Virus record (IMG/VR): IMGVR_UViG_2693429557_000011
Strand: one strand, 5' to 3'
DNA: 29,524 nucleotides
DNA from: a virus
Taxonomy: Duplodnaviria > Heunggongvirae > Uroviricota > Caudoviricetes
Shown here: positions 3,663 through 19,420 of the stretch, one piece after another
Layout: every line of letters starts with the position of its first letter
How positions within the stretch are numbered: position 1 is the stretch's first letter
Made by a program: the position numbers and the translations under genes
Notes under the pieces: model-generated
Database searches by the model: none
Seen by the model: the letters and a program-made list of their open reading frames with translations, nothing else
Told to the model about the DNA's origin: nothing

Positions 3663-4146
3663 CCTGCGCTTTGTCTTTCTCCAACCACTTCAGCACCGCA
3701 GACGTACGATAAAGGCTCAGGTAACCACAATTCAGGCAATGCAGCGTGTAATAAGTTTTGCGCATATCAGGTATGCTCTTAACATCACCCAAAAAAGCAT
3801 AAGATACATAATGCTTTATGTTCTCTTTAATTAACTCACTCTGTTCCTCCAGGGGTAGATTGTTAAAATTTTCTGGTTTCTTATTTTTATCCCAGCAAAG
3901 ATCCATACTTTCTGGAACAGATAATCGCGACGATCCACATGAAGGGCAGACACTGGAGACCCCCTTCTCAGACAAGAAACGGAAGAAGATTTCTGGCGTA
4001 ATCTCCATCAGCCGCTCTTTATGTTTTTTGACACGACTCATCGACTTCTTATTGATTTCATCAGCTTCTTCTTTGCATTTATCTTCTATATATTTCGATA
4101 GTAAATAGTCATATAACTCTTTTTTTGTAGGTTTTTTTATTTCCAT
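3646..4146 (-). CDS. Hypothetical protein with split zinc-ribbon (CPSC ... CLNC); function unknown
   Basis: 166-aa ORF. Cys pairs CPSCG and CLNCG lie about 70 residues apart, and the N-terminus is Lys/Glu-rich. It starts 2 nt after the int stop. It is very AT-rich (hand-counted 60-nt samples give 20-37% G+C). Confidence 0.7.
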   Translation of the reverse strand: MEIKKPTKKELYDYLLSKYIEDKCKEEADEINKKSMSRVKKHKERLMEITPEIFFRFLSEKGVSSVCPSCGSSRLSVPESMDLCWDKNKKPENFNNLPLEEQSELIKENIKHYVSYAFLGDVKSIPDMRKTYYTLHCLNCGYLSLYRTSAVLKWLEKDKAQDGDNG

Positions 4147-4148
4147 AG

Positions 4149-5126
4149 TTACATTCCTCCCAAGGGATTAAACCTCACCGCATCCTGCAAGTAATCCGGC
4201 GCAAGATGGGCATAAATCATCGTTGTCTGAATCTTTGCGTGCCCCAGAATTTTCTGGAGCGTCAGAATATTGCCGCCGTTCATCATGAAATGACTGGCGA
4301 AGGTGTGGCGCAGCGCATGAACAGCCTGGCCGTCAGGAACATCAGGTGCGACCGTTTTGATGACATCGCGAACCAATGAATAATCCAGCGTCGGAAACAC
4401 CAGTTTCCCGCCCCGTTTTTTGATCTTTTCAAACAGGCTTTCAGAAATAGGAACGGTACGGTTTTTGCTGTTCTTCGTTTTTGAAAAAGTGATTCGACAA
4501 TGAAGAACACGGCGCTGCTCCAGTGCCGCTACCTCGCCCCATCGCGCCCCGGTCGACAGAAGGATTTCGACGGCCAGCCGTTCATCGGGATTTTCAGCCA
4601 GTGCATCCAGCAACTGAACACATTCAGACTTACTCAGATATCCCATTTCACGCTCGTTAACCTTCATTCCTTTAAGGCCTTGAACGGGGTTATCGTTAAG
4701 AAAATGGCCGGATGAGATGAGTGCGGTAAACATCGCGCTTAACGCCCCAATCTCTCGATTTATGGTGCTGGGCTGTATCCCCTGCTCTATCCTGGACACA
4801 CGTAGCTCGGTGAGCATCGTTGTATTAAGTTTATGCACGCACGGGTCATCCATTGCCTCACTCAAGCGCAGCAATTTAAGGCGCGTGTTATGCCCTGACT
4901 TCATTAGCTGGCCGTGGTATTTCCACCACAAGTCAATAAGCACTGACAGCGGACGGCGATCAATGGAGTTTCCTTTCCACTCATTGTTATGCTGTTGCGC
5001 CAGCACCCACCGCTCATATAAAACTGCATCCGATTTCGTTTTAAATTTTTTGCGAATGCGTTTGCCTTTACGCCCCTCAGGACGCATGTCAAGAAGATAC
5101 CCTCCCGGAATTGATTTTATGCTCAT
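4149..5126 (-). CDS. int: Tyrosine integrase, P2 Int type
   Basis: The ORF track gives 375 aa. I place the start at the internal ATG at 5126 (MSIKSIPGGYLLDMRPEGRKGKRIRKKF), which aligns with the P2 Int N-terminus. The C-terminal catalytic region is LSTGARWGE ... HALRHTFASHF ... LGHAKIQTTMIYAHL (R, H-x-x-R, H, Y). Confidence 0.9.
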   Translation of the reverse strand: MSIKSIPGGYLLDMRPEGRKGKRIRKKFKTKSDAVLYERWVLAQQHNNEWKGNSIDRRPLSVLIDLWWKYHGQLMKSGHNTRLKLLRLSEAMDDPCVHKLNTTMLTELRVSRIEQGIQPSTINREIGALSAMFTALISSGHFLNDNPVQGLKGMKVNEREMGYLSKSECVQLLDALAENPDERLAVEILLSTGARWGEVAALEQRRVLHCRITFSKTKNSKNRTVPISESLFEKIKKRGGKLVFPTLDYSLVRDVIKTVAPDVPDGQAVHALRHTFASHFMMNGGNILTLQKILGHAKIQTTMIYAHLAPDYLQDAVRFNPLGGM

Positions 5127-5175
5127 TCGTGAAGCCCCAGCGTTACAAGACCACCATGCCCCCAGCGTTCCATGA

Positions 5176-5487
5176 TTAGCCGGGCTGTGTGCCAGTCTTG
5201 CGGGATTTTTGAGAAGACGATGTGTTTTCTGGCCCATCAGGGGAGAGAGAAGGACTGATCTGCCCAGCAGCCTCATTTGTTTCGTTACTCATCAACCACG
5301 TAGTGTATTTTTTAAATTCCGGGTGCATTGTGATTTTCAGTAAAACCTCCGTTCCCACACCTCGAATACCAGTCTCGTATTGCTTAACCGTACCAACCGC
5401 AATACCTATTGAATCCGCGAACTTTGCCTGACTAAGCCCCTCAGATTCTCGAATTGCTTTTAGCTTCTTTGATATCTCTATTGACAT
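5176..5487 (-). CDS. Immunity repressor, P2 C type (HTH)
   Basis: 103 aa from the internal ATG at 5487 (MSIEISKKLKAIRESEGLSQAKFADSIG...). It has an HTH_XRE-like N-terminus, and the segment HPEFKKYTTWLMSN...GQISPSL parallels P2 C (TPQFTKYTLWFMTN...GQIAPAL). It is divergent from the cox-like gene. Confidence 0.8.
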   Translation of the reverse strand: MSIEISKKLKAIRESEGLSQAKFADSIGIAVGTVKQYETGIRGVGTEVLLKITMHPEFKKYTTWLMSNETNEAAGQISPSLSPDGPENTSSSQKSRKTGTQPG

Positions 5488-5875: not shown

Positions 5876-6214
5876 ATGCTGAAGCAACGCCGTAATTTTT
5901 GTACCGGAACAGAACGCCACGCTAACCGTTTCACTACCAGTGCATCACGCAGCAACATCCGCTACAGCCTGAGTGATACACACGCAACGCCGGATGGCTA
6001 CCCAGTAAAACAAATCGGCGAGCACGCCTGGCTGATTGAGAAAGCTGGAATCGTGATCCACAAATGCCCACGCAATCCGTTTACCGGAAACCGCATTTTT
6101 GCACTGAGCTGTGGCGACAATCAGTTCGGGCAGGATTTCACATTATACGAAGCACTTCGCACGGTTGATCGTCTGCTTCGCGGGCAAAGTTTTATTAAAC
6201 AGGCTGATTTATAA
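5876..6214 (+). CDS. Hypothetical early-operon protein
   Basis: 112-aa ORF with GAGGTG Shine-Dalgarno-like sequence upstream. It is co-oriented and tightly packed in the early operon. No motif recognised. Confidence 0.5.
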   Translation: MLKQRRNFCTGTERHANRFTTSASRSNIRYSLSDTHATPDGYPVKQIGEHAWLIEKAGIVIHKCPRNPFTGNRIFALSCGDNQFGQDFTLYEALRTVDRLLRGQSFIKQADL

Positions 6215-6224
6215 CAGGTGCTTT

Positions 6225-6512
6225 ATGACCAAAGACAATGCACAAGGTGTATTTATCCGTTTTATTGATTTTCGCGGTGAACTGTTATTACGTGCATCCG
6301 CTATTGACGGAGTGACTCCGGCGGGTAAAAACGGAGCCGACGAAGCCACTTACGTTTATCTGAACGGCACGCGACTGCTTGTGGAACTTCCGTACCAGAC
6401 CGTACGAGAAATCATCAGCGAAGATGAAAAGGCACGCCAGGTTAATGGCGATGAACCCTATATCGAAATTATTTGTATGGATTCAGAAGCTGAAATACAG
6501 AAAGCAGATTAA
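6225..6512 (+). CDS. Hypothetical early-operon protein
   Basis: 95 aa from the ATG at 6225 (MTKDNAQGVF...), in frame with the track ORF 6111-6512. I chose this start to avoid overlap with the preceding gene. No motif recognised. Confidence 0.5.
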   Translation: MTKDNAQGVFIRFIDFRGELLLRASAIDGVTPAGKNGADEATYVYLNGTRLLVELPYQTVREIISEDEKARQVNGDEPYIEIICMDSEAEIQKAD

Positions 6513-6523
6513 AGGGCGTTGTG

Positions 6524-6766
6524 ATGGGCAAAGAATATAAAACTCTCATTAACAAAGCACTTGAGCGTTTTTATTTTCGCTTAAGTGCATCAGGCGCTCA
6601 TGCTGAACGTGCGGCCCGTGACTCATTGACCAGAGCAATCCGAAGTCTGTATGACGTGGCTTTTTACGCTGATGATCTGGATGCACTTAACGAACTTTCC
6701 GAGCTGATCTGTGCCGCAGAATGCGGGGAACATATTGAACCGTATAAGCTGGGAAATATCGCATGA
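6524..6766 (+). CDS. Hypothetical early-operon protein
   Basis: 80-aa ORF (MGKEYKTLINKALERF...). Its stop overlaps the next small ORF. No motif recognised. Confidence 0.5.
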   Translation: MGKEYKTLINKALERFYFRLSASGAHAERAARDSLTRAIRSLYDVAFYADDLDALNELSELICAAECGEHIEPYKLGNIA

Positions 6767-6876
6767 GTATATTTATTTCATGGCTTGTTCTGATTATTTC
6801 GGTGGTCTGCGCCATTGGGATTATGCGAATTATTAATTCAGTAAAAAAGATTGAACGCTTTTTCACTGAAGAATAA
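6763..6876 (+). CDS. Small hydrophobic peptide (37 aa, single TM), putative
   Basis: Not in the ORF track because it is under 60 aa. It reads ATG at 6763 to TAA at 6874-6876: MSIFISWLVLIISVVCAIGIMRIINSVKKIERFFTEE. The ATGA overlap with the upstream stop suggests translational coupling. Confidence 0.4.
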   Translation: MSIFISWLVLIISVVCAIGIMRIINSVKKIERFFTEE

Positions 6877-6962
6877 CCGCGCAAATAAGACCCCAGGTTA
6901 AATAAGAAAATGTGAAAACAATCCGCATTCGCGGAGGTATTCGCACACGCCAAGGAGGCGTA

Positions 6963-7166
6963 ATGGCAATTAAGCATTTTCCTGTCGTTCGTTTCACCTC
7001 CAGAGGACGTGAATACGAAGTTGACGAACGCCTGATTACCACAATCGACAAACACCGTTCAGAAAAGGATGCACATCATATCTATCTCACTGACGGCACT
7101 TACTTCTGCGCCACCAACGTGGTGCAGGTGAATCTTATCAGACAGGTACAGGAGTCACGCAGATGA
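6963..7166 (+). CDS. Hypothetical early-operon protein
   Basis: 67 aa from the ATG at 6963, preceded by AAGGAGG (6952-6958). It is in frame with the track ORF 6912-7166. The stop overlaps the next start. Confidence 0.55.
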   Translation: MAIKHFPVVRFTSRGREYEVDERLITTIDKHRSEKDAHHIYLTDGTYFCATNVVQVNLIRQVQESRR

Positions 7167-7408
7167 CCATTCTGGACTACATCGCTGCCAATCCGGGTTG
7201 TAGCAGTGGAGAAATCGCCGCAGCACTGAATACACCAACCACAACCATTAATGCGGAGCTACGCCGTCTCTGGCGCAGCGGTTTAGTCACAAGAAAAGAG
7301 CGCAAAACAGGCGGTCGCTTTTCTTATCAGGTAAACCTGATGCCGTTTGGGTGTAGCAACCCACTAACCCAGATGTTCAACCAGCTACTGAGGGAAATCA
7401 GAGCATGA
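7163..7408 (+). CDS. Small winged-helix DNA-binding protein (putative)
   Basis: 81-aa ORF. ILDYIAANPGCSSGEIAAALNTPTTTINAELRRLWRSGLVTRKER looks like a MarR/ArsR-type wHTH. It has an ATGA overlap with the upstream gene. Confidence 0.55.
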   Translation: MTILDYIAANPGCSSGEIAAALNTPTTTINAELRRLWRSGLVTRKERKTGGRFSYQVNLMPFGCSNPLTQMFNQLLREIRA

Positions 7409-7549
7409 GCACCTCCAACTGCCGGAAACCACGTCGGGCTTCAGCAGCTCATCCGGCAGCAAAACAAACTCCATTAATTCCTGTTCCGGGCCTTTCCTGC
7501 ACCTTGCGGCGGGAGGCCTTCGCACATCTGTAACAAGAGGATTGCCGCA

Positions 7550-7915
7550 ATGATTCTCGCCAACGACTTTCTTGAATACCTGCTCAACACAGAGCGTGAT
7601 CTTGCCGCTCGCGTGCGTGATCGTTATGACATGTACCTGAAATCCCTGCCTGTACCGCAGCTCGCTGACGGAAAGATTGTTATTGATGGTCGCTACATGA
7701 TTGACAGCCACGAGGGAAATTACAGGCTTTACCGCATTGAAGGTGGCACCCCGTCCGTTATTGGCATTTACCAGCGCCCATCCTCTGCAATCGTCGATGT
7801 GATTGCCGACAGCATCCGCATCACACATCGCCATGCCGACACAGAAGACACCGTGCTGGAAATTCAGCGGCTGGCTACAGTCTGCCGCGACACCCTGAAT
7901 GGCATGACGAAGTAA
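7550..7915 (+). CDS. Hypothetical early-operon protein
   Basis: 121-aa ORF immediately upstream of the replication gene. No motif recognised. Confidence 0.5.
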   Translation: MILANDFLEYLLNTERDLAARVRDRYDMYLKSLPVPQLADGKIVIDGRYMIDSHEGNYRLYRIEGGTPSVIGIYQRPSSAIVDVIADSIRITHRHADTEDTVLEIQRLATVCRDTLNGMTK

Positions 7916-7921
7916 ATCACT

Positions 7922-10744
7922 ATGACGGCAGAGTACATCAGGGACTGGCAACAACCGCGCCACGCAGTGGGGCGTGAAGGAACGGGGATCCCCGCTCCTG
8001 AATCCGCGCTTTCCTCCTGGCTGGATGCCCACCGGGCAGAGAACGAGCGCCGCCAGGAAATGGCTGATGCGGCGTTCTCCGCCACGCCACTGGGCAACCT
8101 GATTAATAAAAGCCTGGACGCACAGGAAAAACAGGACAAAACCATCACACTGGCAGGAGACGCCAGAAAACAGGCACGCGGCGCGGTGGATGAAGCCATG
8201 GCCTCGCTGCGCCTGCTGCCGTCCTATCTGCGCGATCCGCTTATTCGCCACCTCTCCTTCCTGCGCAAAAAACAGGAAGCCGATCGCCGGAAAGGCAAAA
8301 AGAGCTGGCAGGCGGAACGCTATGCACGCGGAACCCTGCGCAAAATATTCGAACGTCTGGATCGCACTGACGGACACTGGCTGACACCGGGTTATCGCTC
8401 CCTTGCCGGACGTGAACGCCTGGACGATTTGCTTTACCTGCCGCAACTCAACAAACACCAGATACAGACGCTGGCCACCATGACGGCGGCGATGTTCAGC
8501 AGCACCTTCGAAAAACTCTGCGATGGTTTTGGCGCGACTGATGGCGAGCTGACCATGGATGTAACGCTGAAGGCGTATCAGATGCTGGCCCGCATGGCGT
8601 TACACTTACACGCCATGCCTCCGCATTATGACGCACTGACAACAGACAAAGACCGGAGGCACGAACCGGACACAGAACTGCTGCCGGGCGCAATCCTTCG
8701 CCTGACCTGTGCGGAATGGTGGAAACGCAAACTGTGGCTGTTACGTTGCGAGTGGAGAGAAGAACAACTTCGCGCCGCCTGTCTGGTTTCCAGAAAAACA
8801 TCGCCCTATCTGAGCCAGGACGCGTTAAGCGAGTTTCGCGCACAGCGCGAGAAAACACGCGATTTCCTGAAAAGTTTCATGCTGGAAAATGAAGACGGGT
8901 TCACGATTGATCTCGAGACGGTGTATTACGCGGGAGTAAGTAACCCGGTTCACCGTAAGGCAGAAATGATGGCCACCATGAAGGGGCTGGAACTTCTGGC
9001 CGAAGCCCGTGGCGACAAAGCGGTGTTTCTGACTGTCACCTGCCCGTCAAAATACCACGCCACAACGGAGAACGGTCATCCGAATCCCAAATGGAACGGG
9101 GCCACAATGCGCGACTCCAGCGATTACCTGGTTAACACGTTTTTTGCGACGGTCCGCAAAAAACTGAACCGCGACGGCCTGCGCTGGTATGGCATCCGCA
9201 CGGCGGAGCCTCACCATGACGGCACCGTGCACTGGCATATGATGGTCTTTGCTCATCCGGAAGAAATCGACACCATTGTGTCCCACACCCGCGATATTGC
9301 CATTCAGGAAGATCGTCACGAGCTGGGCGATGACATAACTCCGCGCTTTAAGGCGGAGTATGTAGACGGCTCAAAAGGCACGCCAACCAGCTACATCGCC
9401 ACCTACATCGGGAAAAACCTGGACAGCCGCGCCGTGGATGGCATCGACCCGAAAACGGGCAAGCCACGCGTTGACCACGAAACCGGAAAATCAATGGCCG
9501 AGAGCGTGGAACGCGCCATCGGCTGGGCGCGCCTTCACCGGGTCCGCCAGTTCCAGTTCTTTGGCATCCCCTCCCGCCAGGTATGGCGTGAACTGCGCCG
9601 CCTTGCCAGCCAGATGGCACGCAACCCGGAAGGCCCGCAACGGCTGAAGGATGACGCAATGGATGCGGTTCTTGCCGCCGCTGATGCCGGATGTTTTGCC
9701 ACCTACATAGAGAAACAGGGCGGCGTACTTGTTCCACGCAAAGACTACCTGATTCGCACCGCCTACGACCTCGCCGATGAGCTGAACGATTACGGCGAAC
9801 AGAGCGTACAGATTTACGGGATCTGGTCACCACTCATCGGGGAATCCTCCCGTGTGTGCACGCATCCGGATAACTGGAAGCTGGTAAGACGCAAACCGGA
9901 AGCGGAAGACAGCGCCCGCGAAAATGGTTTTGACCTTCAGGGCGGCCCTGCCGCCCCTTGGACTCGTGGCAATAACTGTCCCCGTGTACAGGAAACGGAC
10001 AACAACGGGACAGAACAGCCGGAAGAACGGCCAGCACCGTGGCCGCAGCTCCCTGACGGCGTTGATGTGGATGAATGGATGCGCTCACTGAAACGGCACG
10101 AACGCCGGGCGCTGATGCGTTCGCTTCGTGACAAACAGGCAAAAAACAGCAGTGATGAAATGCAGAGCTGGACACAGAGCCGCAAACAGCAGCGGCCTTT
10201 GCCTGATAACCACGAATTACTCGCTAAAGAATGGCGGGAGTCTGCTGAATCTCTCGGCCTGCATATCGGTGAACAACAGATGCAGCACCTGTTACGGGGC
10301 GGCAGTCTGTACGTTGACGGCAGCATCATTGCACCGCAGGGATTTGAAATTGTACGCAAACCGGATACCCGCCCGGACAGCCGAATCACGCAGCTCTGGC
10401 AGCGCCTGAGCCGTAATCATGGCGTAAGCAGCACGGAGATCCGCCATAACCCGGTCGCCAGCTATCTGACACAGCTGGGGGCATCAGACCCTGAAGCCGC
10501 CGCACGCCTGGCATCCACACTTCAGCAGGACCAGAACACCATGAAAACACCCGTTACCGTGCTTTCTGACATGCTGCGCGCCATCCGCGACGCAGAGCAC
10601 GCACAGAGAATCAGTGAAACCACTGAACGCGCCCGCCGCAAAGCAGACCTGCTGCGGGGTGGCCTGACCAGTGGAAACAAAAAACAGACAGAAACGGGAC
10701 TCACGAATCCCGTAAATGAGCAAAAAACGCGCAGCGATATATGA
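7922..10744 (+). CDS. Replication initiation endonuclease, P2 gpA family (HUH rolling-circle initiator)
   Basis: 940-aa ORF. The HUH-type metal motif GTVHWHMMVF has its HWH at nt 9230-9238. The paired catalytic tyrosines YIATYIGKN (Y491, Y495; nt 9392-9406) match the Y-x-x-x-Y of P2 A. The last 250 aa or so are charged and Gln-rich. Confidence 0.9.
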   Translation: MTAEYIRDWQQPRHAVGREGTGIPAPESALSSWLDAHRAENERRQEMADAAFSATPLGNLINKSLDAQEKQDKTITLAGDARKQARGAVDEAMASLRLLPSYLRDPLIRHLSFLRKKQEADRRKGKKSWQAERYARGTLRKIFERLDRTDGHWLTPGYRSLAGRERLDDLLYLPQLNKHQIQTLATMTAAMFSSTFEKLCDGFGATDGELTMDVTLKAYQMLARMALHLHAMPPHYDALTTDKDRRHEPDTELLPGAILRLTCAEWWKRKLWLLRCEWREEQLRAACLVSRKTSPYLSQDALSEFRAQREKTRDFLKSFMLENEDGFTIDLETVYYAGVSNPVHRKAEMMATMKGLELLAEARGDKAVFLTVTCPSKYHATTENGHPNPKWNGATMRDSSDYLVNTFFATVRKKLNRDGLRWYGIRTAEPHHDGTVHWHMMVFAHPEEIDTIVSHTRDIAIQEDRHELGDDITPRFKAEYVDGSKGTPTSYIATYIGKNLDSRAVDGIDPKTGKPRVDHETGKSMAESVERAIGWARLHRVRQFQFFGIPSRQVWRELRRLASQMARNPEGPQRLKDDAMDAVLAAADAGCFATYIEKQGGVLVPRKDYLIRTAYDLADELNDYGEQSVQIYGIWSPLIGESSRVCTHPDNWKLVRRKPEAEDSARENGFDLQGGPAAPWTRGNNCPRVQETDNNGTEQPEERPAPWPQLPDGVDVDEWMRSLKRHERRALMRSLRDKQAKNSSDEMQSWTQSRKQQRPLPDNHELLAKEWRESAESLGLHIGEQQMQHLLRGGSLYVDGSIIAPQGFEIVRKPDTRPDSRITQLWQRLSRNHGVSSTEIRHNPVASYLTQLGASDPEAAARLASTLQQDQNTMKTPVTVLSDMLRAIRDAEHAQRISETTERARRKADLLRGGLTSGNKKQTETGLTNPVNEQKTRSDI

Positions 10745-10792
10745 AGCGCGCACAAAACAGGCAAAAACGGGATTTCAGAATCCCGTAAACGA
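10681..10792. repeat. Two 39-bp direct repeats, each containing an 8-bp-stem palindrome; candidate parC-like centromere or other protein-binding site
   Basis: Unit 1 at 10681-10719 is AAAACAGACAGAAACGGGACTCACGAATCCCGTAAATGA. Unit 2 at 10754-10792 is AAAACAGGCAAAAACGGGATTTCAGAATCCCGTAAACGA. They share about 33/39 identity with a 73-bp period. The palindrome ACGGGATT-TCAG-AATCCCGT lies at 10767-10786. Unit 1 lies inside the 3' end of A and unit 2 just upstream of parM. Confidence 0.5.
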
Positions 10793-10820
10793 TTAATTAA
10801 TCAACATAAGGAAAAGCGAC

Positions 10821-11780
10821 ATGAAAATTTGTATCGACGACGGCTCCACCAACATCAAGCTGGCATGGACTGAGAACGGCGAACGCCGCAACGCCATCAG
10901 CCCGAACAGCTTCAAGTCGGAATGGTCTGCGCCGTTCGGTGGCATGCAGCCCGCGAACTACATGCTTGATGGCGTGCGCTATGGTTTTGATCCGGTCAGC
11001 GATCGCTTTGTCCAGACAACCGACACGCAATACCAGTACAGCGATGTAAATGTCATTGCCATTCATCACGCGCTGGTCAAATCAGGCATCACGCCACAGG
11101 AGGTGGATGTGGTTGTCACCCTGCCACTGAGCGAGTATTTCGACACAAACGCACAGCCGGACATGGCCAACATCAACCGCAAAAAAGCGAACGTTATGCG
11201 CCCGGTGGAGTACCAGAACGGCGAAGCATTCACTATCCGTAACGTGCGGGTTATGCCTGAATCCATTCCGGCTGGCTTTAAGGCACTGGCTGACATGAGT
11301 CCGTTTGAATCCCTGCTGATTGTGGATTTGGGCGGAACCACGCTGGATGTGGCAAAGGTTCAGGGGCAACTGGCAGGTATCAGCCAGGTGTTTTGCGATC
11401 CACACGTAGGCGTTTCTCTGATGGCCGATGCCGTACTGTCGGTGATGGCCACTAACGGTATGCGCACCAGTCACCACATCGCCAATACCATTATCGAACA
11501 TCGCCATGATGAAGCCTGGCTGCGCCAGCACATCCACAATGACGCGCATTACGCCAGCCTGATGGCGGTTATTCGTGAAAAGGAAGAAACACTGAAACAA
11601 CGCGTGATCCGCGCGCTGGCGGGTTTTTCGGGTTACGGGCGGGTGATGGTTGTCGGTGGAGGGGCGGAGATTGTGGCACCCGCTATCCGCGAAGCCTGCG
11701 GAGTTAATGCGACTTTCATCGCGGACGGGGTGCCACAGTTTGCTCTGGTTAATGGGCTGTACGCAATGGACAAGGAGTAA
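10821..11780 (+). CDS. parM: Actin-like plasmid segregation ATPase ParM/StbA
   Basis: 319-aa ORF. It is colinear with plasmid R1 ParM as I remember it: IDDGSTNIKL phosphate-1, ISPNSFK.EW, YSDVNV.A.HHAL, TLPL.EY, ERKKAN, V.VMPESIPAG, LLI.DLGGTTLD phosphate-2, VM.GGGAE adenosine motif, LVNG.Y. Confidence 0.85.
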   Translation: MKICIDDGSTNIKLAWTENGERRNAISPNSFKSEWSAPFGGMQPANYMLDGVRYGFDPVSDRFVQTTDTQYQYSDVNVIAIHHALVKSGITPQEVDVVVTLPLSEYFDTNAQPDMANINRKKANVMRPVEYQNGEAFTIRNVRVMPESIPAGFKALADMSPFESLLIVDLGGTTLDVAKVQGQLAGISQVFCDPHVGVSLMADAVLSVMATNGMRTSHHIANTIIEHRHDEAWLRQHIHNDAHYASLMAVIREKEETLKQRVIRALAGFSGYGRVMVVGGGAEIVAPAIREACGVNATFIADGVPQFALVNGLYAMDKE

Positions 11781-11784
11781 ACCA

Positions 11785-12096
11785 ATGACGACACCAACCA
11801 GACGGATAAGTTTCTATCTGAAGCCTGCGGCCGTCAAGAACGAAAGCGAAGCATGCGCCTGGCTGGGCAGCCTTACACCAGAAGCCCGCAAAAGCGGCCA
11901 ACGCGTGGCTTTTCTGGCCGGGCTGGCACTTCTGAAAATGAATCCAGCAGAGGCTTACCGACTGGCTGCATGGGCTGACGATGAGGCGTTATCGGTGACA
12001 CAAACCAGGACAGAACGCCCCGTGCCACAGCCAGTACCAACCGCACAGATAACCAGTCAGATAGCAGGGAATATCCGGGCATTATTTCCTGAATGA
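11785..12096 (+). CDS. parR: ParR/StbB-like centromere-binding adaptor (putative)
   Basis: 103 aa from the ATG at 11785, 4 nt after the parM stop. RRISFYLKPA...LGSLTPEARKSGQRVAFLAGLAL parallels R1 ParR RTIAFKLNPD...LDSIPQGERSRLNRAALTAGLAL (RHH N-terminus). Confidence 0.7.
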   Translation: MTTPTRRISFYLKPAAVKNESEACAWLGSLTPEARKSGQRVAFLAGLALLKMNPAEAYRLAAWADDEALSVTQTRTERPVPQPVPTAQITSQIAGNIRALFPE

Positions 12097-12156
12097 CGAA
12101 TTTGACGGCTTTTAATTTTATCGGGGTGCACTGTCGCCCCGCACGAGGAAAACACG

Positions 12157-12681
12157 ATGAAAAAATACGAATACATGCTAATGAAAGAAGCACTGCGGGC
12201 TGGTCTGGCTCCCTGTCCTGTATCCGTAGAAGCTGTTGTTGGGAACACGATTTTCCGAACGCTGCGAAATCGCGTATCCGTGAAGATGGTTCACCAACCA
12301 CCCAAATCTACCAGCATGATCTATCTGCCGCTGCCCGAGGCTATCAAACTTATGCGTTCGCTGAAATTTGCGATTTGGATGCAGACACAAATCAACAAAG
12401 CGGTGCAAAACACCTTCGTTAAGAGACTAATACCGGAGCTTGCTGCCAGATGTGCAAAATGTACCAGACCCGCACTTCAATTTGATCTGTCATTGATTCA
12501 ACAAGCTACGGAGGCAGAACTGTACCGCCTGTCACCTATCCGTGATGCTCACACGGAAGCATCAGAAATGTTCCGGCTCATGTTTCAATTTAATTTTGCC
12601 GTTCGACGCACACGCGTTCAGGTCAATCGCATGATGCAGGAGCAGGAAGAGTTAACACAGTACAAAGGGGGCAGCCAGTGA
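12157..12681 (+). CDS. Hypothetical protein, hotspot cargo gene 1
   Basis: 174-aa ORF with GAGGA Shine-Dalgarno-like sequence at 12144-12148, preceded by a stem-loop at 12122-12141. No catalytic motif recognised. Hand-counted G+C in a 60-nt sample is about 42%. Confidence 0.65.
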   Translation: MKKYEYMLMKEALRAGLAPCPVSVEAVVGNTIFRTLRNRVSVKMVHQPPKSTSMIYLPLPEAIKLMRSLKFAIWMQTQINKAVQNTFVKRLIPELAARCAKCTRPALQFDLSLIQQATEAELYRLSPIRDAHTEASEMFRLMFQFNFAVRRTRVQVNRMMQEQEELTQYKGGSQ

Positions 12682-12917
12682 GTAATTCAGCACGACTACA
12701 GCTTGGTTTTTCACCGCTATCAAAAACCATCGTATTGGCAAAAATGCGTGACTTAGGAGACGGAACAAAACGCCGCGTAGGAAATGATCGCGGTCGCGAT
12801 GTAACCAACGAGGCCGCTCAACTCGTTTGGCATCTAGTCATGGCAGAAGGCGGTGAAATTAATTGGGAGCTGGATGATGGTTCTCGTATGATTTTGAGGG
12901 CCGAGAAGAGTAAATAG
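12678..12917 (+). CDS. Hypothetical protein, hotspot cargo gene 2
   Basis: 79-aa ORF. Its GTG start overlaps the upstream stop as GTGA (12678-12681), suggesting translational coupling. No motif recognised. Confidence 0.55.
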   Translation: MSNSARLQLGFSPLSKTIVLAKMRDLGDGTKRRVGNDRGRDVTNEAAQLVWHLVMAEGGEINWELDDGSRMILRAEKSK

Positions 12918-12931
12918 CTCAAGGGGGATTA

Positions 12932-13117
12932 ATGCTAAATGATGATGAAGAAGAGCTGCTTATGCAGGAATGGTCGCTCGGTGATTATGATAATGGTGAA
13001 AATGGGTGCCCGCATTGTGGCCGTTATCGTTTATGTATCTGCCAGAATGGAAAACACAGATGTGAAAAGTGCAATTGGTCTCCGGAACTTAATGACTACG
13101 TGCCGATCGAGTGGTAG
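12932..13117 (+). CDS. Small Cys-rich zinc-ribbon protein, hotspot cargo gene 3
   Basis: 61-aa ORF with AGGGGG Shine-Dalgarno-like sequence upstream. It has an acidic N-terminus followed by CPHC-x5-CxC-x6-CEKC. Confidence 0.55.
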   Translation: MLNDDEEELLMQEWSLGDYDNGENGCPHCGRYRLCICQNGKHRCEKCNWSPELNDYVPIEW

Positions 13118-13140
13118 AGGTAAGTCACACTAGGTGTTTT

Positions 13141-13557
13141 TTAGTTGATTTTATAAATGCACAATAGTGCACAAATTTGCACAATTTTTTTGAACGACTT
13201 TTTGCCCTTCCGGCCCGCGTGGCGGCTGGATCCGTCAAGGATCCGTGCATGCACAAAAAAACGCGTTTTTTCTGCGCGCAGGTGACGGGGGAACAGCCCG
13301 CGTTTCAGGGGGTAAATAGCATTCCCTGAACGATGTCGCAGAGATACAACAGAATGGCTGTATTTCTCACGCTGAGCGTGAAAAAGACGTGAGGGCTTTT
13401 GATTTGATGGGGTGAAAGGTAAGGCCGTCAAAATCGCACTGAGACGGCGAGAATATGCAGTCAACGAGGTGGGATTGCGTAAGAGTCTGACTGTCGATGA
13501 TGGCAATCAGCAGGAAAGCGTCGTGAAATTATCTGACTGATACAGGAGCTGGAGAGT
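13141..13557. other. Non-coding cos/packaging region of the P2-like phage (exact cos not fixed)
   Basis: This is the gap between the last cargo gene and the 3' end of portal gene Q, which is where P2 and 186 carry cos. The core GCGTGGCGG at 13217-13225 matches the start of the 186 cohesive end (GGCGTGGCGGGG) as I recall it. GGATCCGT is directly repeated at 13228-13235 and 13239-13246. TGCACAA occurs three times with a 10-bp period at 13158-13185. Confidence 0.45.
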
Positions 13558-13582
13558 CGGGGCATAAATTTTTTATGCCCCG
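13558..13582. terminator. Perfect 11-bp-stem hairpin just downstream of portal gene Q
   Basis: CGGGGCATAAA (13558-13568) / TTT / TTTATGCCCCG (13572-13582). There is no clean U-tract outside the stem, so it is not a canonical intrinsic terminator. Its position matches the hairpin after Q in P2. Confidence 0.45.
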
Positions 13583-13608
13583 GCGAAGCAGCAGACAAGC
13601 GAAGCGCG

Positions 13609-14655
13609 TCAGGATGTGGGCTGGGTGTCTAACAGTGCGTAAGGGTTAAAGCGGATCACCTCTTCGCCAAGCCAGTCATTGATGTGCTTCATGGCCTCCA
13701 TGACGGGCATCAGCTCGTTAATTGCGTAAACCCGCGCGGCCTTCTCCACATCACCAAACGCACTTTTTTCGCCCGGCATCGCCCCCATCAGTTGCGGCGG
13801 AACGCGGTGCGCAGCCAGCACATCATCACGGGATGCCGCCTTAACATTCATGAACTCATCCTTTGCGGTGATCTGCTGGAACGGCAAAATTTGCACCCCC
13901 TCTTTGCCCCCGTTGGGCGCATGAATGAGCACGTTTTTAAACGCACCACCACCACGTGCCCCCTGTAGCGTTTCTTTCAGGGAGTCCATGCTTTCGCGGT
14001 TTACCTGCGCTGCACCGATGTAGATGATGCACCCGGCGTGGGATCCGTTGTCGTAGTACAGTTTTCTGAACATGTCCGCCGAATGAGAAAGGCTGGCCGA
14101 GAGTAATGCGCCAAGATATTCCGGCATGCCGTAGATTTCCTGGTTAATATCCGGATTCATCAGGTGGCACACTTTGCCAGGACGAAACTGAAACGCATCC
14201 TTGCCATCCTGCACATACCACCATGATTCAAGATCGCTTCCGCGTCGCATGTATTTCGCCAGGGCGTGCCGTAATTTAAGCGGTTCGCCGAGCATATTGC
14301 TCCGAAGCTCAAGGAATGCGTTACCGAACACAAACCAGTCCAGCGCCAGCGCCGAGAAATCCTGCCGGGAAAGCAGCGGGTGCGGAATATAGCAGCCGAG
14401 CAATACATTGCGCTTAAAGTAAAGCGCAGACTGATGCCAGGACGTTTGCCGGGCAGCTCTTGCCAGACCGTACCAGTCCACCGGGGTTTCATACCACCGC
14501 CCGTTATCAGCACAGTACATATTGTCCAGCAGGTCATGCCCGGTCAGGCGGTAAGGACCATCAAATGTGAATGCACTGAGCGACGATTCTTTCCTGAGCG
14601 CATCAGCGAGATCAATGCGTGAACTCATGCGCACTTTTTTATTTTTTCTGCTCAT
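13609..14655 (-). CDS. Portal protein, P2 gpQ type
   Basis: 348-aa ORF (P2 Q is about 344 aa). It is adjacent to and co-oriented with the large terminase, and divergent from the scaffold/capsid operon, as in P2. Confidence 0.85.
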   Translation of the reverse strand: MSRKNKKVRMSSRIDLADALRKESSLSAFTFDGPYRLTGHDLLDNMYCADNGRWYETPVDWYGLARAARQTSWHQSALYFKRNVLLGCYIPHPLLSRQDFSALALDWFVFGNAFLELRSNMLGEPLKLRHALAKYMRRGSDLESWWYVQDGKDAFQFRPGKVCHLMNPDINQEIYGMPEYLGALLSASLSHSADMFRKLYYDNGSHAGCIIYIGAAQVNRESMDSLKETLQGARGGGAFKNVLIHAPNGGKEGVQILPFQQITAKDEFMNVKAASRDDVLAAHRVPPQLMGAMPGEKSAFGDVEKAARVYAINELMPVMEAMKHINDWLGEEVIRFNPYALLDTQPTS

Positions 14656-16406
14656 CAGAACTCCATAACCGTGAAACGCTCGTTTTCTCCTTCGCCGCCA
14701 ATCGGTTCGTTAATGACAGCAAGCATGGTTGCCCACGCAAGGTCGCCGTGGCTGATCCCCCTCGCGCGGTCCGTTTCGTAAGTGATAAAACCGCCCGGTG
14801 TTTTCACCTTACGCACGGCGTTAAAGGCCGCAACCAGCTCGCGTTCGGCGCGATCGTATTCCCACCGCCCGGCACGCATTATTTGCAGCATTTTCAGTAC
14901 CAGCGACCGTTTTGATGACAGCGTGAAGGTGTAAGGGATGGCGGCGGGAAAAAACCGTTTCACTATCTGATAGACGGCATCCCCGTGCCCGCCCGTCGCA
15001 TCAATGCCGATGTGTTCCACGTTGTAGCGATACGTGAACTCTTCAATAACTCTGGCCTGCTCTTCAAATTCCAGCCCCTGAACGCGTCGCGTCTCCACCG
15101 TTCTGAAACGACCACCAGGAACAGCCGGAGGAACCACCACGGACACAGCGCCGCTGTCGCCGTTACCACTGCTGCCGTTTGCGTCATACCCAATCCATAC
15201 CGGACGATTCCCCATCGGGCGGGGGGCAAAGGGTTTCCAGTCTTTCCAGTCGTCGTATCCGTCAACACCGCAGCCAATCAGGATATTCAGGTTAAATGCC
15301 GATTCCCCTTCGCGGACAAACTCACACATATAGAGATTGCGGAACTCGTCTTCGGTGTTTTCATCACGAATTTCATCAATATCGGTGTGTTTCCAGCCGT
15401 GATTAACCACATCTTCCAGCGTGACAATTTGCCGCCACGTCCGGTCAGGGCAGATAAGCCCGTTATGCAGCGTTTTCCAGTCCACAGAAAAACGCTGGCG
15501 TTTATGCGCGGCCTTTTTCTCGTTCCAGCGGTCGCCGTTCCAGTAGGCGTATGCCTCGTGCGTTTCGGTGGATGGCGTGGAGAAGCAGGTGCGCCGCAGT
15601 CCGCTGAGGGTTGCCATAGCGCCAGCCACCTTGCGCAGTTCAGCAAAGCGACTGACCCAGAAAAATTCATCAAAATAAAAATTGCCCGTGTAAGATTGCG
15701 CCGTCGCAGCAGAAGTGCCGAGAAAATGCATCTCTGCGCCGTTGGAGAGGATGATTTTATCGCCCCCTTTCAGCTCCACATCGACTTCAGCCGCGGCCTT
15801 CTGAATAATGCTTTTAAACTGGAACGCCTGACGACGCGACGCAGACAAAAAAATCTGGTTACGCTGGTAAGGTTGTGCCACATCGTCACGCAGCGCCATC
15901 AGCAGTGCTTCCTGTGCAAAATACCAGGTCGCCCCAATCTGTCGGGATTTCAGGATCATCCTGTTACGTATCCCGGCTTCCCTGCAAAGCGTCAGGGAGT
16001 CAAACCAGCCCCGCTGATGCCACTCCAGCCTGCTGATGATTTTTTCCCGCAGTGCGGCAATCTGTTCCGGCGTGAAATGATTTTTGAGTTTTTTCGCCCG
16101 GCCTTTCTTTCCTGTGGCCGTCGCATCCGGCTGGCCATCATGCAGTTTTTTAAGCTGCCGGGTCAGCAGGTCTATTTCCTTAAAGTCACCACCTGTTTTA
16201 TTCTGTTTTTCAGTAAGCTGGATGAGGCGCGCATCGATGGACTGCGTGACACGCTGCACGGGTGGCGTTTCATCCCACTGGTCGCGTTTTTTCCACGCAT
16301 AAATCGTGTTCGGGTTTATTCCCATCAGACGTGATATTTCTGCGGGCGGATAACCCTGCCAGTAAAGTTGCCGCGCACGCTGGCGCACAAAAGCGTCCTG
16401 AATCAT
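14655..16406 (-). CDS. Terminase large subunit (ATPase/nuclease), P2 gpP type
   Basis: 583-aa ORF. The N-terminal HTH-like segment is YWQGYPPAEISRLMGINPNTIYAWKKR. The Walker A-like region is ILKSRQIGAT and the Walker B-like region is NFYFDEFFW. The 1-nt overlap with Q follows the P2 order. Confidence 0.9.
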   Translation of the reverse strand: MIQDAFVRQRARQLYWQGYPPAEISRLMGINPNTIYAWKKRDQWDETPPVQRVTQSIDARLIQLTEKQNKTGGDFKEIDLLTRQLKKLHDGQPDATATGKKGRAKKLKNHFTPEQIAALREKIISRLEWHQRGWFDSLTLCREAGIRNRMILKSRQIGATWYFAQEALLMALRDDVAQPYQRNQIFLSASRRQAFQFKSIIQKAAAEVDVELKGGDKIILSNGAEMHFLGTSAATAQSYTGNFYFDEFFWVSRFAELRKVAGAMATLSGLRRTCFSTPSTETHEAYAYWNGDRWNEKKAAHKRQRFSVDWKTLHNGLICPDRTWRQIVTLEDVVNHGWKHTDIDEIRDENTEDEFRNLYMCEFVREGESAFNLNILIGCGVDGYDDWKDWKPFAPRPMGNRPVWIGYDANGSSGNGDSGAVSVVVPPAVPGGRFRTVETRRVQGLEFEEQARVIEEFTYRYNVEHIGIDATGGHGDAVYQIVKRFFPAAIPYTFTLSSKRSLVLKMLQIMRAGRWEYDRAERELVAAFNAVRKVKTPGGFITYETDRARGISHGDLAWATMLAVINEPIGGEGENERFTVMEF

Positions 16407-16560
16407 TGCTCCCCCTGAGTAATTACAGGAAGATTACCCGCGCGCGAAACCGTTCTCCTTAACCCCCTGTTCTGGCCGTTTTCTTACAACAAAAGCCCTT
16501 TGTATCAGCCTGTTACGCTTTGCCATCATGACTGAAGAACCAGTCAGAGGGGCAAAAACT
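16407..16560. promoter_or_regulatory. Divergent late-promoter region between the P and O operons
   Basis: Called on position, between divergent late operons as in P2. There is only an imperfect dyad, TGT (16468-16470) N15 ACA (16486-16488), not the canonical TGT-N12-ACA activator site. Confidence 0.35.
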
Positions 16561-17397
16561 ATGGCTAATGAAAAAAAGACATCCCGCAAAAAGTTTCGCG
16601 TGGCTGTCTCCGGATCAACTGTTGATGGCCGTGAAATCAGTCCGGTGCATCTGCGTGAAGCCGCCGAGAACTTCAACCCGGATGTTTACGCTGCCCGCGT
16701 GAACGTTGAGCACTATCTCTCGCCATGCCCGTCAAGCGAATTTTCCGCAATGGGCGATGTCACCGCACTGAGTACGGAAGACATTACGGAAGGTCCGCTG
16801 GCCGGACGTACTGCGCTGTATGCAGAAATCGAACCGACCGAGCGCATGAAGCAGCTTGTCGCGGACGGCAAGAAAATCTATTCCAGTATCGAACTGCACC
16901 CGCAGTTCTCCGTTAACGGGCGCGCCTATCTGGTCGGGCTGGCGATGACCGACACCCCGGCAAGCCTGGGCACTGAGCGCCTGAAATTCACGGCACAGCA
17001 ACGTCAGGCGGTGATGACGTTCAACAGTATCCAGGGTGAAGCACCGCTTATCTCCGAAGCCATCGAGTCTGAAATCATCGAAATGGCAGAACAACGCCAG
17101 GAAGAAGGCACCCAGTGGTTTAACCGCGTAATGGGGATTATTGGTCGTGGCCGCAAAGCGGATGACGCCAGTTTCTCCCGTATTCAGGAAGCGGTGGAAA
17201 GCGTCGCAACGTCACAGGCCGACATTATCGACCGTTTTAATGCGCTGGAAACACGCCATCAGCAGGACAGCCAGAAAATCACTTTACTGACCACGGAGCT
17301 GACAGCACTGAAGGAAAAACTGCGCACGCAGGACGGCGATCCGCAGAACCGGTTCACCGCAACGGGCGCAGCCTCCGACCAGCTGGCTGACTTCTGA
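16561..17397 (+). CDS. Capsid scaffolding protein, P2 gpO type
   Basis: Start placed at the ATG at 16561 (MANEKKTSRKKFRVAVSGSTVDGREIS), which aligns with P2 gpO MAKKVSKFFRIGVEGDTCDGRVIS. YLVGLAMTDTPASLGTE matches P2 YLVGLAVTDDPASLGTE. Confidence 0.9.
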   Translation: MANEKKTSRKKFRVAVSGSTVDGREISPVHLREAAENFNPDVYAARVNVEHYLSPCPSSEFSAMGDVTALSTEDITEGPLAGRTALYAEIEPTERMKQLVADGKKIYSSIELHPQFSVNGRAYLVGLAMTDTPASLGTERLKFTAQQRQAVMTFNSIQGEAPLISEAIESEIIEMAEQRQEEGTQWFNRVMGIIGRGRKADDASFSRIQEAVESVATSQADIIDRFNALETRHQQDSQKITLLTTELTALKEKLRTQDGDPQNRFTATGAASDQLADF

Positions 17398-17420
17398 TAA
17401 GACAAAGGAGCAAATTTTTT

Positions 17421-18473
17421 ATGAATCTGGTGATGTCAGATATTACCCGCAACAAGCTGGGTTGCTATATGGCGCAGCAGGCGTCGCTTAACAATATCCC
17501 GGTTTCTGCACTGGTATCGCGATTTACCGTGGAACCTGCGGTGCAGCAACGTTTTGAAAACGCCTCAAAGGATAGCACCGAACTTACAAAAAAAATTAAC
17601 GTGATCGGCGTGACCGACCAGAAAGGCGAAAAAATCCTCCTGGACACCACAGGACCGATTGCACGCACAAATACCAGTTATGACGGAACAAAACGCCGTA
17701 ACCCGAATAACGTGGTTGATCTGAAAAACCGCAAATACCAGTGCGAACAGGTGAACTACGACACGTTTATTTCGTATCCGCAGCTTGATGCCTGGTCGGC
17801 ACACAGCGATTTTCAGTCCCGCATCAGCGCACAGATTGCCCGACAGGTGGCACTTGACCGCATCATGATCGGTTTCAACGGCACATCTCACGCGGATGAG
17901 TCCAACTTCAGCACCAACAAGCTGCTTCAGGACGTTAACGTGGGGTGGCTGGAGCACATCAGAACCAATGCCAGCGAGCGCGTAATGAATGACGTGACGC
18001 TGACTTCCCGCAACATGGACAACACCGTGGCGCACGCGGGTAAATACGCGAACCCTGATGCACTGGTACAGGACGCGCGCTCATCTCTGCTGGATGAATG
18101 GCACAAGGAAGCTGACGACCTCGTGGTGATTATGGGGCGCAACCTGTTTAACTCGCTGCGTCTGCCAGTGCTGAACAGCATCAGCGGCCAGAATCCCAAT
18201 GCGGAATTACTTGCCGGGCAGCTCATCCTGTCATCGCGCACCATTGGCGGGCTGGGTGTGTTCCTTGCACCGTTCTTCCCGGATGCAACGATGCTGATCA
18301 CCTCATTCAACAACCTGTCGATTTACTGGCAGAAAGGTTCAATGCGTCGTCTGATGAAAGACGAACCGGAATACAACCGCATCGCCACCTACCAGTCCAT
18401 CAATGACGCTTATGTCGTTGAAGACTATGGCAAGTGCGCGATGGTCACTGGCCTGAAGTTCGCCGACAGCTAA
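17421..18473 (+). CDS. Major capsid protein, P2 gpN type
   Basis: 350-aa ORF. FTVEP.V.Q, IMIGFNG, LLQDVNVGWL and LSIYW... are colinear with P2 gpN (FTVEPSVTQ, IMAGFNG, MLQDVAVGWL, LSIYY). Confidence 0.9.
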   Translation: MNLVMSDITRNKLGCYMAQQASLNNIPVSALVSRFTVEPAVQQRFENASKDSTELTKKINVIGVTDQKGEKILLDTTGPIARTNTSYDGTKRRNPNNVVDLKNRKYQCEQVNYDTFISYPQLDAWSAHSDFQSRISAQIARQVALDRIMIGFNGTSHADESNFSTNKLLQDVNVGWLEHIRTNASERVMNDVTLTSRNMDNTVAHAGKYANPDALVQDARSSLLDEWHKEADDLVVIMGRNLFNSLRLPVLNSISGQNPNAELLAGQLILSSRTIGGLGVFLAPFFPDATMLITSFNNLSIYWQKGSMRRLMKDEPEYNRIATYQSINDAYVVEDYGKCAMVTGLKFADS

Positions 18474-18518
18474 TCAACTCACGGCGGGCATCATGCCCGC
18501 CTGTAACGGAGAGAAAAA

Positions 18519-19319
18519 ATGATTACTCCTGCACAGCAACACTGGCAGAACGTGATGGCACAGCGCGCAGGCCGGGCGAATGAAGGTGTGGACCACGCCG
18601 CGCGTACCGCGCATGAAGAGGTGCTGTATCGTCTGCGTCTGGCACAGGCCCGGCTTAAGGGCGTACAGGCCAGAAGCGCGAAAGCCGACATCAAAAAAGC
18701 GTTGTTGCCGGACTTTTCCGGCTGGATTGAGGGAACGCTGGAGGCTGACGGCGGGCAACAGGACGAAGTGATTGCCACGCTGATGGTGTGGGCGATTGAC
18801 TGCGGCGATCTTCCGCTTGCGCTGCGTATTGGTGCGTATGCGGTCCGTCACAACCTCATCATGCCGGATAACTTTGGCCGTACTGCTGCCACAGTGCTGA
18901 CCGAAGAAATCTGCAATCCGGTACTGACGCAGGCCGGGACGGATGCCGACGCGGATTTGTCCGTCTTTATCGAACCACTGGACACACTTTGGGAAATTGT
19001 CGCCAACCAGGATATGCCGGACGAAGTGCGCGCCAAATTATGCAAGGCGTGCGCCTTTGCCCGCCGTGGCCTGAGCGATGCGGACAGCATGGCCTCATCA
19101 CTGAAGCTGCTGCGCGAAGCGATGCATCTGAACCAGAACGCAGGTGTGAAACGCGAGATTGCAACCCTTTCCCGCGCCCTGAAAAAAGCCGATTCCGCAG
19201 CCGCACCAGAAGACGCCAGCGCACAGCAGGCGCAGGACGAAAGCAGCGAAAGTAAAAAGACAACGCGGAAGCCTGCAACACGAAAAACCACCGCGACGCA
19301 GAAGGCGAAGCGCGGTTAA
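18519..19319 (+). CDS. Terminase small subunit, P2 gpM type
   Basis: 266-aa ORF. The N-terminus MITPAQQHW, DMPDEVRAKL (identical to P2 M), AGVKREI and the basic C-terminal tail resemble P2 gpM. Confidence 0.85.
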   Translation: MITPAQQHWQNVMAQRAGRANEGVDHAARTAHEEVLYRLRLAQARLKGVQARSAKADIKKALLPDFSGWIEGTLEADGGQQDEVIATLMVWAIDCGDLPLALRIGAYAVRHNLIMPDNFGRTAATVLTEEICNPVLTQAGTDADADLSVFIEPLDTLWEIVANQDMPDEVRAKLCKACAFARRGLSDADSMASSLKLLREAMHLNQNAGVKREIATLSRALKKADSAAAPEDASAQQAQDESSESKKTTRKPATRKTTATQKAKRG

Positions 19320-19420
19320 CGACTGACCCCGTCAGCGGGCGGCGTGCGCGGTGTTCCGGTTTGGCTCCGTGACCGTTTACACCGCGCACCCACCGCCCGA
19401 TTTTTTCAGGAGTGAACCCC

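Follow-up and report, generated by a model that had tools for sequence, protein, structure and literature searches.

A putative type II (ParMRC) partition cassette kept by integrating P88-like phages

In the parMRC (stbAB) loci of the low-copy plasmids R1 and R100, a centromere, parC, is followed by genes for an actin-like ATPase, ParM, and a centromere-binding adaptor, ParR, and comparable machinery is found on elements that are normally integrated. The type II partition locus srpMRC of the SXT/R391 integrative and conjugative elements (ICEs) stabilizes their excised, rolling-circle-replicating form (PMC4489591), and the actin-like filament former AlpC and its DNA-binding adaptor AlpA (alpC/alpA/alpS), from the integrated prophage CGP3 of Corynebacterium glutamicum, are needed for efficient phage DNA replication (PMC4446434, PMC5539076). 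Partition systems also occur in tailed temperate phages that are true plasmid prophages with plasmid replicons, namely D6 and KS14, the latter being P2-like in its virion genes and equipped with a type I ParA. Here we analyse a parM–parR locus in a 29,524-nucleotide (nt) stretch of Caudoviricetes DNA (IMG/VR record IMGVR_UViG_2693429557_000011; hereafter the window), which holds an integrated prophage related to the P2-like phage P88.

The locus resembles that of R1/R100 in the order candidate parC, parM, parR, in a colinear ParM with identical nucleotide-binding motifs, in the predicted ribbon–helix–helix (RHH) N terminus and C-terminal ParM-binding tail motif of ParR, and in repeats upstream of parM around a candidate promoter; the carrier, however, is an integrating phage and not a low-copy plasmid, which also sets it apart from D6 and KS14. 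It differs from srpMRC in that SrpM and SrpR are only distantly related to R1 ParM and ParR, are expressed under SetCD control and belong to a conjugative element rather than a phage, and from the CGP3 system in that the latter uses another actin-like family in a large prophage of a Gram-positive host. The cassette as such is already known: it is annotated in P88 (gp17 and gp18, ‘plasmid segregation protein ParM’ and ‘partition protein’), in PHROGs and in RefSeq, where the parM/parR pair is annotated in over a thousand genomes; the annotators of D6 remarked on the similarity of its ParM to P88 StbA; and a hint of an episomal state was published by Pfeifer et al. (2021), who scored P88 as a candidate phage-plasmid and suggested both episomal and integrative states (PMC7969092). 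To this we add a conserved two-box candidate centromere, a ParR that is shortened but retains a predicted ParM-binding tail, evidence that purifying selection is strong and that the linkage to P88-type gpA is near-complete, and a phage-borne ParMR lineage across several enterobacterial genera. We consider it fairly probable that the locus is a type II (ParMRC) cassette, complete and maintained by selection, with the circular, extrachromosomal form of the phage genome as its substrate, and that it forms a backbone module of the P88-like (Xuanwuvirus) subgroup and of its relatives in Hafnia, Plesiomonas, Serratia and Enterobacter.

ParM and ParR

The gene parM (10821–11780, + strand) encodes a 319-residue actin-like segregation ATPase that matches the Pfam families StbA_N (2.7e-82; residues 1–157) and ParM C-terminal domain (1.3e-68; residues 159–316) and belongs to phrog_691, labelled ‘partition protein’. 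In the PDB, phmmer matched it to R1 ParM (1mwk; E = 8.5e-93), with which it is colinear (residues 2–316 on 2–318), and the phosphate-1 (IDDGSTNIKL), catalytic (VMPESIPAG), phosphate-2 (DLGGTTLD) and adenosine (GGGAE) motifs are identical in the two proteins. Global identity is 46.5% to R1/R100 ParM, close to the figure of about 50% given in the original prediction, and 53.3% to the ParM of an IncL/M plasmid. We assign the open reading frame (ORF) as a full-length ParM with all nucleotide-binding motifs intact, that is, the predicted actin-fold component of a type II system.

The start codon of parR (11785–12096, + strand) lies 4 nt past the parM stop (11780), as had been described. Its 103-residue product, the predicted centromere-binding adaptor, matches PF10784 (Plasmid_stab_B, plasmid stability protein StbB/ParR; 2e-23) and phrog_2515, which is also labelled ‘partition protein’. 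As a single query, ParR gave no match in the PDB; a profile built from ParR and its relatives reached the structure of pB171 ParR (2JD3; 1.7e-13). Pfam, PDB and profile matches thus agree with the initial identification of the two ORFs as ParM and ParR of a type II locus, and the helix by which ParR had been recognized is indeed present, as FLAGLAL after an RRISFYLKP strand, the R1 counterpart being LTAGLAL.

An alignment of the phage ParRs with R1 ParR, an IncL/M ParR and four more distant phage lineages resolves three parts. The N terminus consists of a strand followed by two helices, all conserved (R(R/K)ISFYLKP ... ER...QRAAxLAGLAL); next comes a linker, rich in Pro and Gln, that varies between the proteins; and the C terminus is a tail, [K/R/G]-N-[A/I/V]-x-x-L-F-P, that is kept by all phage alleles. 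The tail of the window’s ParR, QIAGNIRALFPE (NIRALFPE helix), aligns with ETKKNAMKLIN of R1 and with TRKNVQHLFPDDD (KNVQHLFP) of the IncL/M protein, and its Asn is invariant across 14 diverse ParRs. We take this tail to be the ParM-binding helix, following the structure of R1 ParM with a ParR peptide, and at the level of sequence ParR would accordingly retain its ParM-docking element. The protein is only 26.6% identical to R1/R100 ParR and is shorter (103 residues against 116 in the R100 coding sequence) because the helical segment after the RHH core is missing and the linker is short. An AlphaFold2 (AF2) model of the monomer has helices at residues 20–61 and 87–100 and a disordered stretch at 62–86, at low confidence (predicted local distance difference test (pLDDT) score 57). 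A predicted RHH-type ParR is encoded directly downstream of parM.

Two palindromic boxes upstream of parM

Upstream of parM lies gene A (7922–10744, + strand), which encodes a 940-residue P2-type rolling-circle replication endonuclease, gpA (Pfam Phage_GPA, 6.6e-131); the Pfam domain accounts for only residues 179–503, and the protein has a long C-terminal extension. A repeat search in this region revealed two 42-nt direct repeats on the + strand (10678–10719 and 10751–10792), each of which contains a 20-bp palindrome of the form GGG-N10-CCC: box 1, ACGGGACTCACGAATCCCGT, at 10694–10713 and box 2, ACGGGATTTCAGAATCCCGT, at 10767–10786, 73 bp apart. The first repeat unit falls within the terminal ~20 codons of gene A, the final codons of which double as box 1, and box 2 is located in the 76-bp intergenic space, starting 54 nt before the parM ATG (52 nt for its GGG core). 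With up to three mismatches allowed, the palindrome has two matches in the 29.5-kb window against an expectation of 0.09, and a complete relative of 34.5 kb likewise has it only at the two sites upstream of parM. We assign the two boxes as a candidate parC, so that the interval originally given for the locus, 10745–12096, fits the genes but would better start at about 10678 to include the first box. An R1-like parC made of A/C-rich AAAACRG iterons had also been considered (26 matches windowwide against 9.8 expected, only 3 of them near parM) and was dropped in favour of the palindromes.

The same two boxes, spaced by 72–73 bp, are present in P88 and in relatives from Escherichia albertii, Salmonella, Hafnia and Plesiomonas. 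In the phages of E. albertii, Salmonella and Hafnia (ParM 94% identical), both boxes read GGGATT-N4-AATCCC and their spacing is exactly 73 bp; the spacing is also 73 bp between GGGATTGAGGAAACCC and GGGTTCATTAAATCCC of a second Hafnia phage (L017; ParM 62%), and it is 72 bp between the two GGGACAAC-N-AACCC boxes of a Plesiomonas phage (L013; ParM 63%). Wherever both boxes are found, the GGG core of the proximal one lies 51–59 bp before the parM ATG, and the arrangement is kept, amid diverged surrounding sequence, in four lineages, down to 60–63% ParM identity. In one Hafnia relative the stop codon of gene A lies inside the palindrome.

Across these phages the GGG/CCC arms of the boxes are invariant and the central bases are free, and a T-to-C change in one arm of box 1 is uncompensated, a combination that fits a protein-binding site better than a hairpin. 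One could instead propose that the boxes serve gene A as a signal for replication or transcription, for example as a gpA-related site or a terminator working in both directions, and that the true parC is elsewhere or missing. Box 1 does lie inside gene A, and on the minus strand both hairpins precede T-rich runs and were called terminator-like; however, no minus-strand gene reads into the boxes, the + strand has no T-run, and the mismatch in the stem of box 1 is uncompensated. Moreover, the replication origin of P2 is situated in the middle of gene A and not at its 3′ end, and in Hafnia L017 the boxes precede parM behind an ORF that is not gpA, which indicates that they travel with parM and not with the replication gene. 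We regard a gene A signal as quite improbable.

Several features upstream of parM may bear on expression. A ATTAATCAA box (10796–10804) is kept in three lineages (the window, L013 and L017) and takes the form ATTAATAAA in another Hafnia phage (L010); a good Shine–Dalgarno sequence follows the proximal box; and a possible weak promoter, TTCAGA-N16-ATTAAT (10774–10801; 8/12 consensus positions by eye), overlies the right arm of box 2. A terminator scan gave no terminator-like site on the + strand between gene A and parM, which makes co-transcription with, or read-through from, the early replication operon plausible; the first convincing + strand terminator-like hairpin lies at 13167–13192, after the cargo genes described below.

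Distribution, selection and state of the carrier prophage

When a parC–parM–parR query was compared with 5426 complete E. coli genomes, the cassette was found in 1307 (24%), in 1278 of them at a coverage of at least 80%. P88-type gene A reaches the same coverage in 1321 genomes, a linkage of about 97%, such that nearly every P88-type phage keeps the cassette. The places at which it occurs number 1453 on chromosomes and 2 on plasmids, with up to 3 copies per genome. In comparisons of the window with six relatives by the Nei–Gojobori method, the ratio of nonsynonymous to synonymous substitution rates (dN/dS) was 0.03–0.13 for parM (0.044 against the Hafnia phage, with dS 0.61 and dN 0.027) and 0.19–0.44 for parR; parM is under strong purifying selection. 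A decaying relic of a plasmid import, which we had considered, was rejected on the basis of these parM ratios, of ORFs that are intact in all relatives examined, of the 1278 genomes in which at least 80% of the parMR query is covered, and of the linkage to gene A.

Within E. coli, parR is mosaic: megablast matches end at one of three points inside the gene (query positions 1095, 1186 or 1237) depending on the strain group, O157:H7 included, while parM stays 95–99% identical across groups with differing parR. ParR alleles go down to ~52% identity, yet always retain the strand at the N terminus and the NIxxLFP tail at the C terminus. Several alleles on a near-constant parM is a pattern seen where specificity diversifies, and this, together with the multiple copies in some genomes, could be taken to favour a device for incompatibility or exclusion. 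Partition incompatibility against plasmids or phage-plasmids had been suggested from the sequence at the outset; in the form considered here, ParR and parC would disturb partition, by titration or mis-pairing, in related plasmids and phage-plasmids or in P88-like phages that superinfect. However, neither the predicted DNA-contacting strand (TRRISFYLKP) nor the boxes differ between alleles, the linker being the part that varies; ParR has no close plasmid relatives with which to interfere, and the nearest plasmid ParM is only 53% identical. PADLOC, in addition, returned no match for ParM, ParR or the cargo genes downstream, leaving a defence-system reading unsupported, and we judge an exclusion function to be very improbable.

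A tblastn search of 50,697 phage records with ParM matched only P88-like phages and the P1-like phage-plasmid D6 (47.8% identity), in keeping with the earlier statement that canonical P2 lacks such a module. For ParR, no tblastn match at E < 0.01 was obtained in 72,556 plasmids, bar seven records that contain the prophage itself. In a search of 5.8 billion proteins, ParM identity falls from 92–99% directly to 54–63%, the latter relatives coming from Plesiomonas, Serratia, Enterobacter and Hafnia; the four of these that were looked up each lie in a P2-like prophage, in the interval from gpA to the portal gene, and are directly followed by a PF10784 gene. A ParM tree, the comparison with plasmid ParMs that the original prediction had proposed, was built by neighbour joining with 200 bootstraps: the window groups with Hafnia and Plesiomonas (100%), Serratia with Enterobacter (100%), and the two clades with each other at 66%; their neighbours in the tree are IncL/M-type plasmid ParMs, with the R1 group and D6 lying apart. 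From its sequence relationships, the cassette is an old resident of one P2-like phage branch and not a recent capture from an IncF plasmid. The label ‘plasmid-type’, read as a recent plasmid import, does not survive this comparison, given that the closest ParMs occupy the same position in P2-like prophages and that tblastn found no independent homologue of ParR in the 72,556 plasmids. A search of genome contigs with ParM returned three near-identical loci only. One of them lies on contig NZ_JBQPOM010000071.1, which is assigned to Vagococcus sp. WN89Y; its parM shares 98% identity with that of the window, and enterobacterial contamination or a mislabelled assembly is the most likely explanation.

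The membership of the carrier is indicated by identity and synteny. Megablast matches of the window include P88 and other Xuanwuvirus records, and across the genes for replication and morphogenesis the window is 91–98% identical to P88 at the nt level (5912–12097, 13156–20109 and 21153–22305), which places it among the P88-like phages (genus Xuanwuvirus, Peduoviridae). Over 7435–12097, the stretch that includes P88 gp17 and gp18, identity is 97.7%, ParM is 99.7% identical, and the boxes and their spacing are the same; the integrase/immunity region and the cargo after parR differ from those of P88, as does the site, integration here being beside btuC. At 30–2915 the window contains host genes for an NlpC/P60 protein, an ABC ATPase, a glutathione peroxidase and a FecCD-type permease, corresponding to the btuCED-nlpC neighbourhood of E. 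coli; a phage integrase gene follows at 4149–5276 (− strand), and portal and terminase genes are on the opposite strand from 13609. By this evidence the copy is an integrated P88-like prophage beside host btuC, and the initial description of the carrier as an integrase-encoding P2-like prophage with a P2-type gpA is borne out. Between btuC and the integrase gene, a region of low G+C content (3000–4150; ~0.43) contains two minus-strand ORFs (3108–3662 and 3646–4146), the first of which encodes a coiled-coil protein with weak LmuB/ZorA-like PADLOC matches (E about 1e-4 to 1e-5); these may be att-proximal cargo or a defence gene.

The three small ORFs downstream of parR had been proposed to form, together with parMR, one imported plasmid block, an idea that we rejected. 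In blastn comparisons of the window with P88 and with the 34.5-kb circular relative, homology stops at 12097, immediately 3′ of the parR stop, and restarts at 13156, leaving 12098–13155 as a variable slot in which relatives carry other cargo or none. In the window this slot (12097–13155, + strand) holds a 174-residue ORF with no family in Pfam, PHROGs or PADLOC (12157–12681), a DUF7446 gene with 80–91% nt identity to unrelated phages, namely lambdoid, Yersinia and Salmonella phages (12678–12917) and a gene for a 61-residue zinc-ribbon protein (12932–13117), and it is followed by the terminator-like hairpin mentioned above. The same slot has a ClpX-zinc-finger-like gene and other small ORFs in P88, a single 135-residue ORF in the 34.5-kb circular relative (L002), almost nothing in one Hafnia phage, and HicAB, a KAP NTPase or an Ogr-like gene in other relatives. 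We interpret the three ORFs as ordinary cargo between gene A and the portal gene, outside the par module.

An extrachromosomal lifestyle had likewise been raised for this phage and is the subject of a further alternative, in which P88-like phages would persist for many generations as low-copy episomes by means of gpA and ParMRC, instead of integrating. One record in PLSDB gives it substance: NZ_CP148288.1 (pZ1323PEC0009-2), from a cat E. coli isolate, is a circular, complete P88-like genome of 34,461 bp, including integrase and parMR, and is 100% identical over 12.4 kb to the integrated prophage of a human isolate from the same study, Z1323HEC0067. This lone circular record could equally be excised DNA from spontaneous induction, and the remaining ‘plasmid’ matches are prophages within very large records, or one linear fragment. 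A contig of Plesiomonas shigelloides (WEKF01000002.1; L013) is 32,167 bp long, about one phage genome, ends ~150 bp past the integrase gene and could be a separately assembled, maybe episomal, phage genome.

The gene content gives a divided picture: partition genes are present, as in a phage-plasmid, but the replication gene is a normal P2-type gpA, a cis-acting rolling-circle initiator and not a copy-controlled plasmid Rep. All relatives examined keep the integrase. Precedents favour the episomal alternative to some degree, in that D6, a phage-plasmid, uses a homologue of this ParM, Pfeifer et al. listed P88 among their candidates, and KS14, a P2-like phage of Burkholderia, has been proven to be a plasmid prophage, though with RepB and ParA (PMC3091744). 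Against it stand the 1453 chromosomal places compared with 2 on plasmids, the host flank btuCED-nlpC beside the integrase gene of the present copy, and the induction of P88 from attL/attR (PMC5285337), which together lead us to conclude that integration is the normal lysogenic state. Plasmid-like inheritance is thus not the usual lysogenic state, the single circular record being an exception, and we consider a facultative phage-plasmid distinctly unlikely.

A possible role on circular phage genomes

P2-type phages replicate by a gpA-driven rolling circle that yields monomeric double-stranded circles. The position of parMR directly 3′ of gene A, on the same strand and with no terminator between them, suggests that the cassette is expressed when such circles exist, that is, after infection, after excision and during lytic replication, and we propose that its substrate would be the extrachromosomal circular phage genome and not the integrated prophage. 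By analogy with R1 and pB171, from which DNA binding and filament formation are extrapolated, ParR dimers would bind the two boxes, which at 73 bp are about seven helical turns apart, and form a parC complex; in this position ParR would probably also repress a putative promoter overlapping the proximal box. The C-terminal helix of ParR would then capture the growing ends of ATP–ParM filaments, and bipolar filaments would push two parC-bearing circles apart. The phage may benefit in that unintegrated or excised copies would reach both daughter cells rather than be lost, and in that replicating circles would be spread or positioned within the cell.

The second of these benefits can also be framed without any part in inheritance, as a lytic-cycle cytoskeleton like AlpC/AlpA of CGP3 in which ParM filaments move or space replicating circles for replication or packaging. 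The module ends the early replication operon, downstream of gpA and with no intervening terminator, parM is strongly conserved in otherwise mosaic phages, and CGP3 itself is a precedent; yet P2, 186 and most other P2-like phages manage without the module, and this explanation overlaps with partition of circular genomes to the extent that sequence alone cannot separate the two. As an explanation of its own we hold it to be possible, if doubtful. Because of the ICE precedent, we place inheritance slightly ahead of the organization of lytic replication, the two being otherwise about equal; a stable phage-plasmid lifestyle and an incompatibility weapon both appear less likely than either role.

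Several points weigh against a complete ParMRC cassette acting on circular phage genomes. The candidate centromere comprises only two 20-bp palindromes, 73 bp apart, in contrast to the ten A/C-rich 11-bp direct iterons that flank the promoter in R1 parC. In the Serratia and Enterobacter phages the layout is different: the region upstream of parM (L014, 5887–5940; L015, 5883–5950) contains a 14–20-bp inverted repeat with ATAGAAAAAT, flanking 26–28 bp, which points to a second type of centromere among the phage-borne ParMR loci. A scan of the region yielded no convincing sigma-70 promoter and did not call TTCAGA-N16-ATTAAT, and the RHH fold assigned to ParR derives from sequence profiles, the AF2 monomer (pLDDT 57) being of low confidence. 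Active partition may be unnecessary in a lytic cycle that takes tens of minutes, or for a genome that integrates fast. Finally, we found no experiment on this module in the literature; a paper on prophages of C. rodentium names the phiSM gene as a ‘fitness’ factor and nothing more (PMC6456863).

A bolder extension of partition on circular genomes is a dual life, in which these phages would have, beside integration, a multi-generation plasmid-like phase after infection or excision, with gpA-generated circles partitioned by a phage-specific two-box ParMRC. We think this unlikely on present evidence. If it were true, non-integrated genomes would be inherited by both daughters, and the choice between integration and lysis could be delayed across divisions.

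Whatever its exact role, the cassette is among the commonest ‘plasmid’ partition loci in E. coli, and yet it is almost always chromosomal, inside a prophage. Matches to parM or parR should consequently not count as plasmid evidence when contigs are typed, and P88-like prophages will score as false-positive ‘phage-plasmids’ in screens based on gene content. If confirmed, the two-box centromere would be a very compact parC for studies of ParR–ParM coupling. More broadly, the locus offers a test case, in an inducible and genetically tractable phage such as P88, for the question of why strong selection should preserve a DNA-segregation machine in a virus that integrates, and thereby for whether small temperate phages may need a cytoskeleton to replicate, to establish lysogeny or to survive excision.

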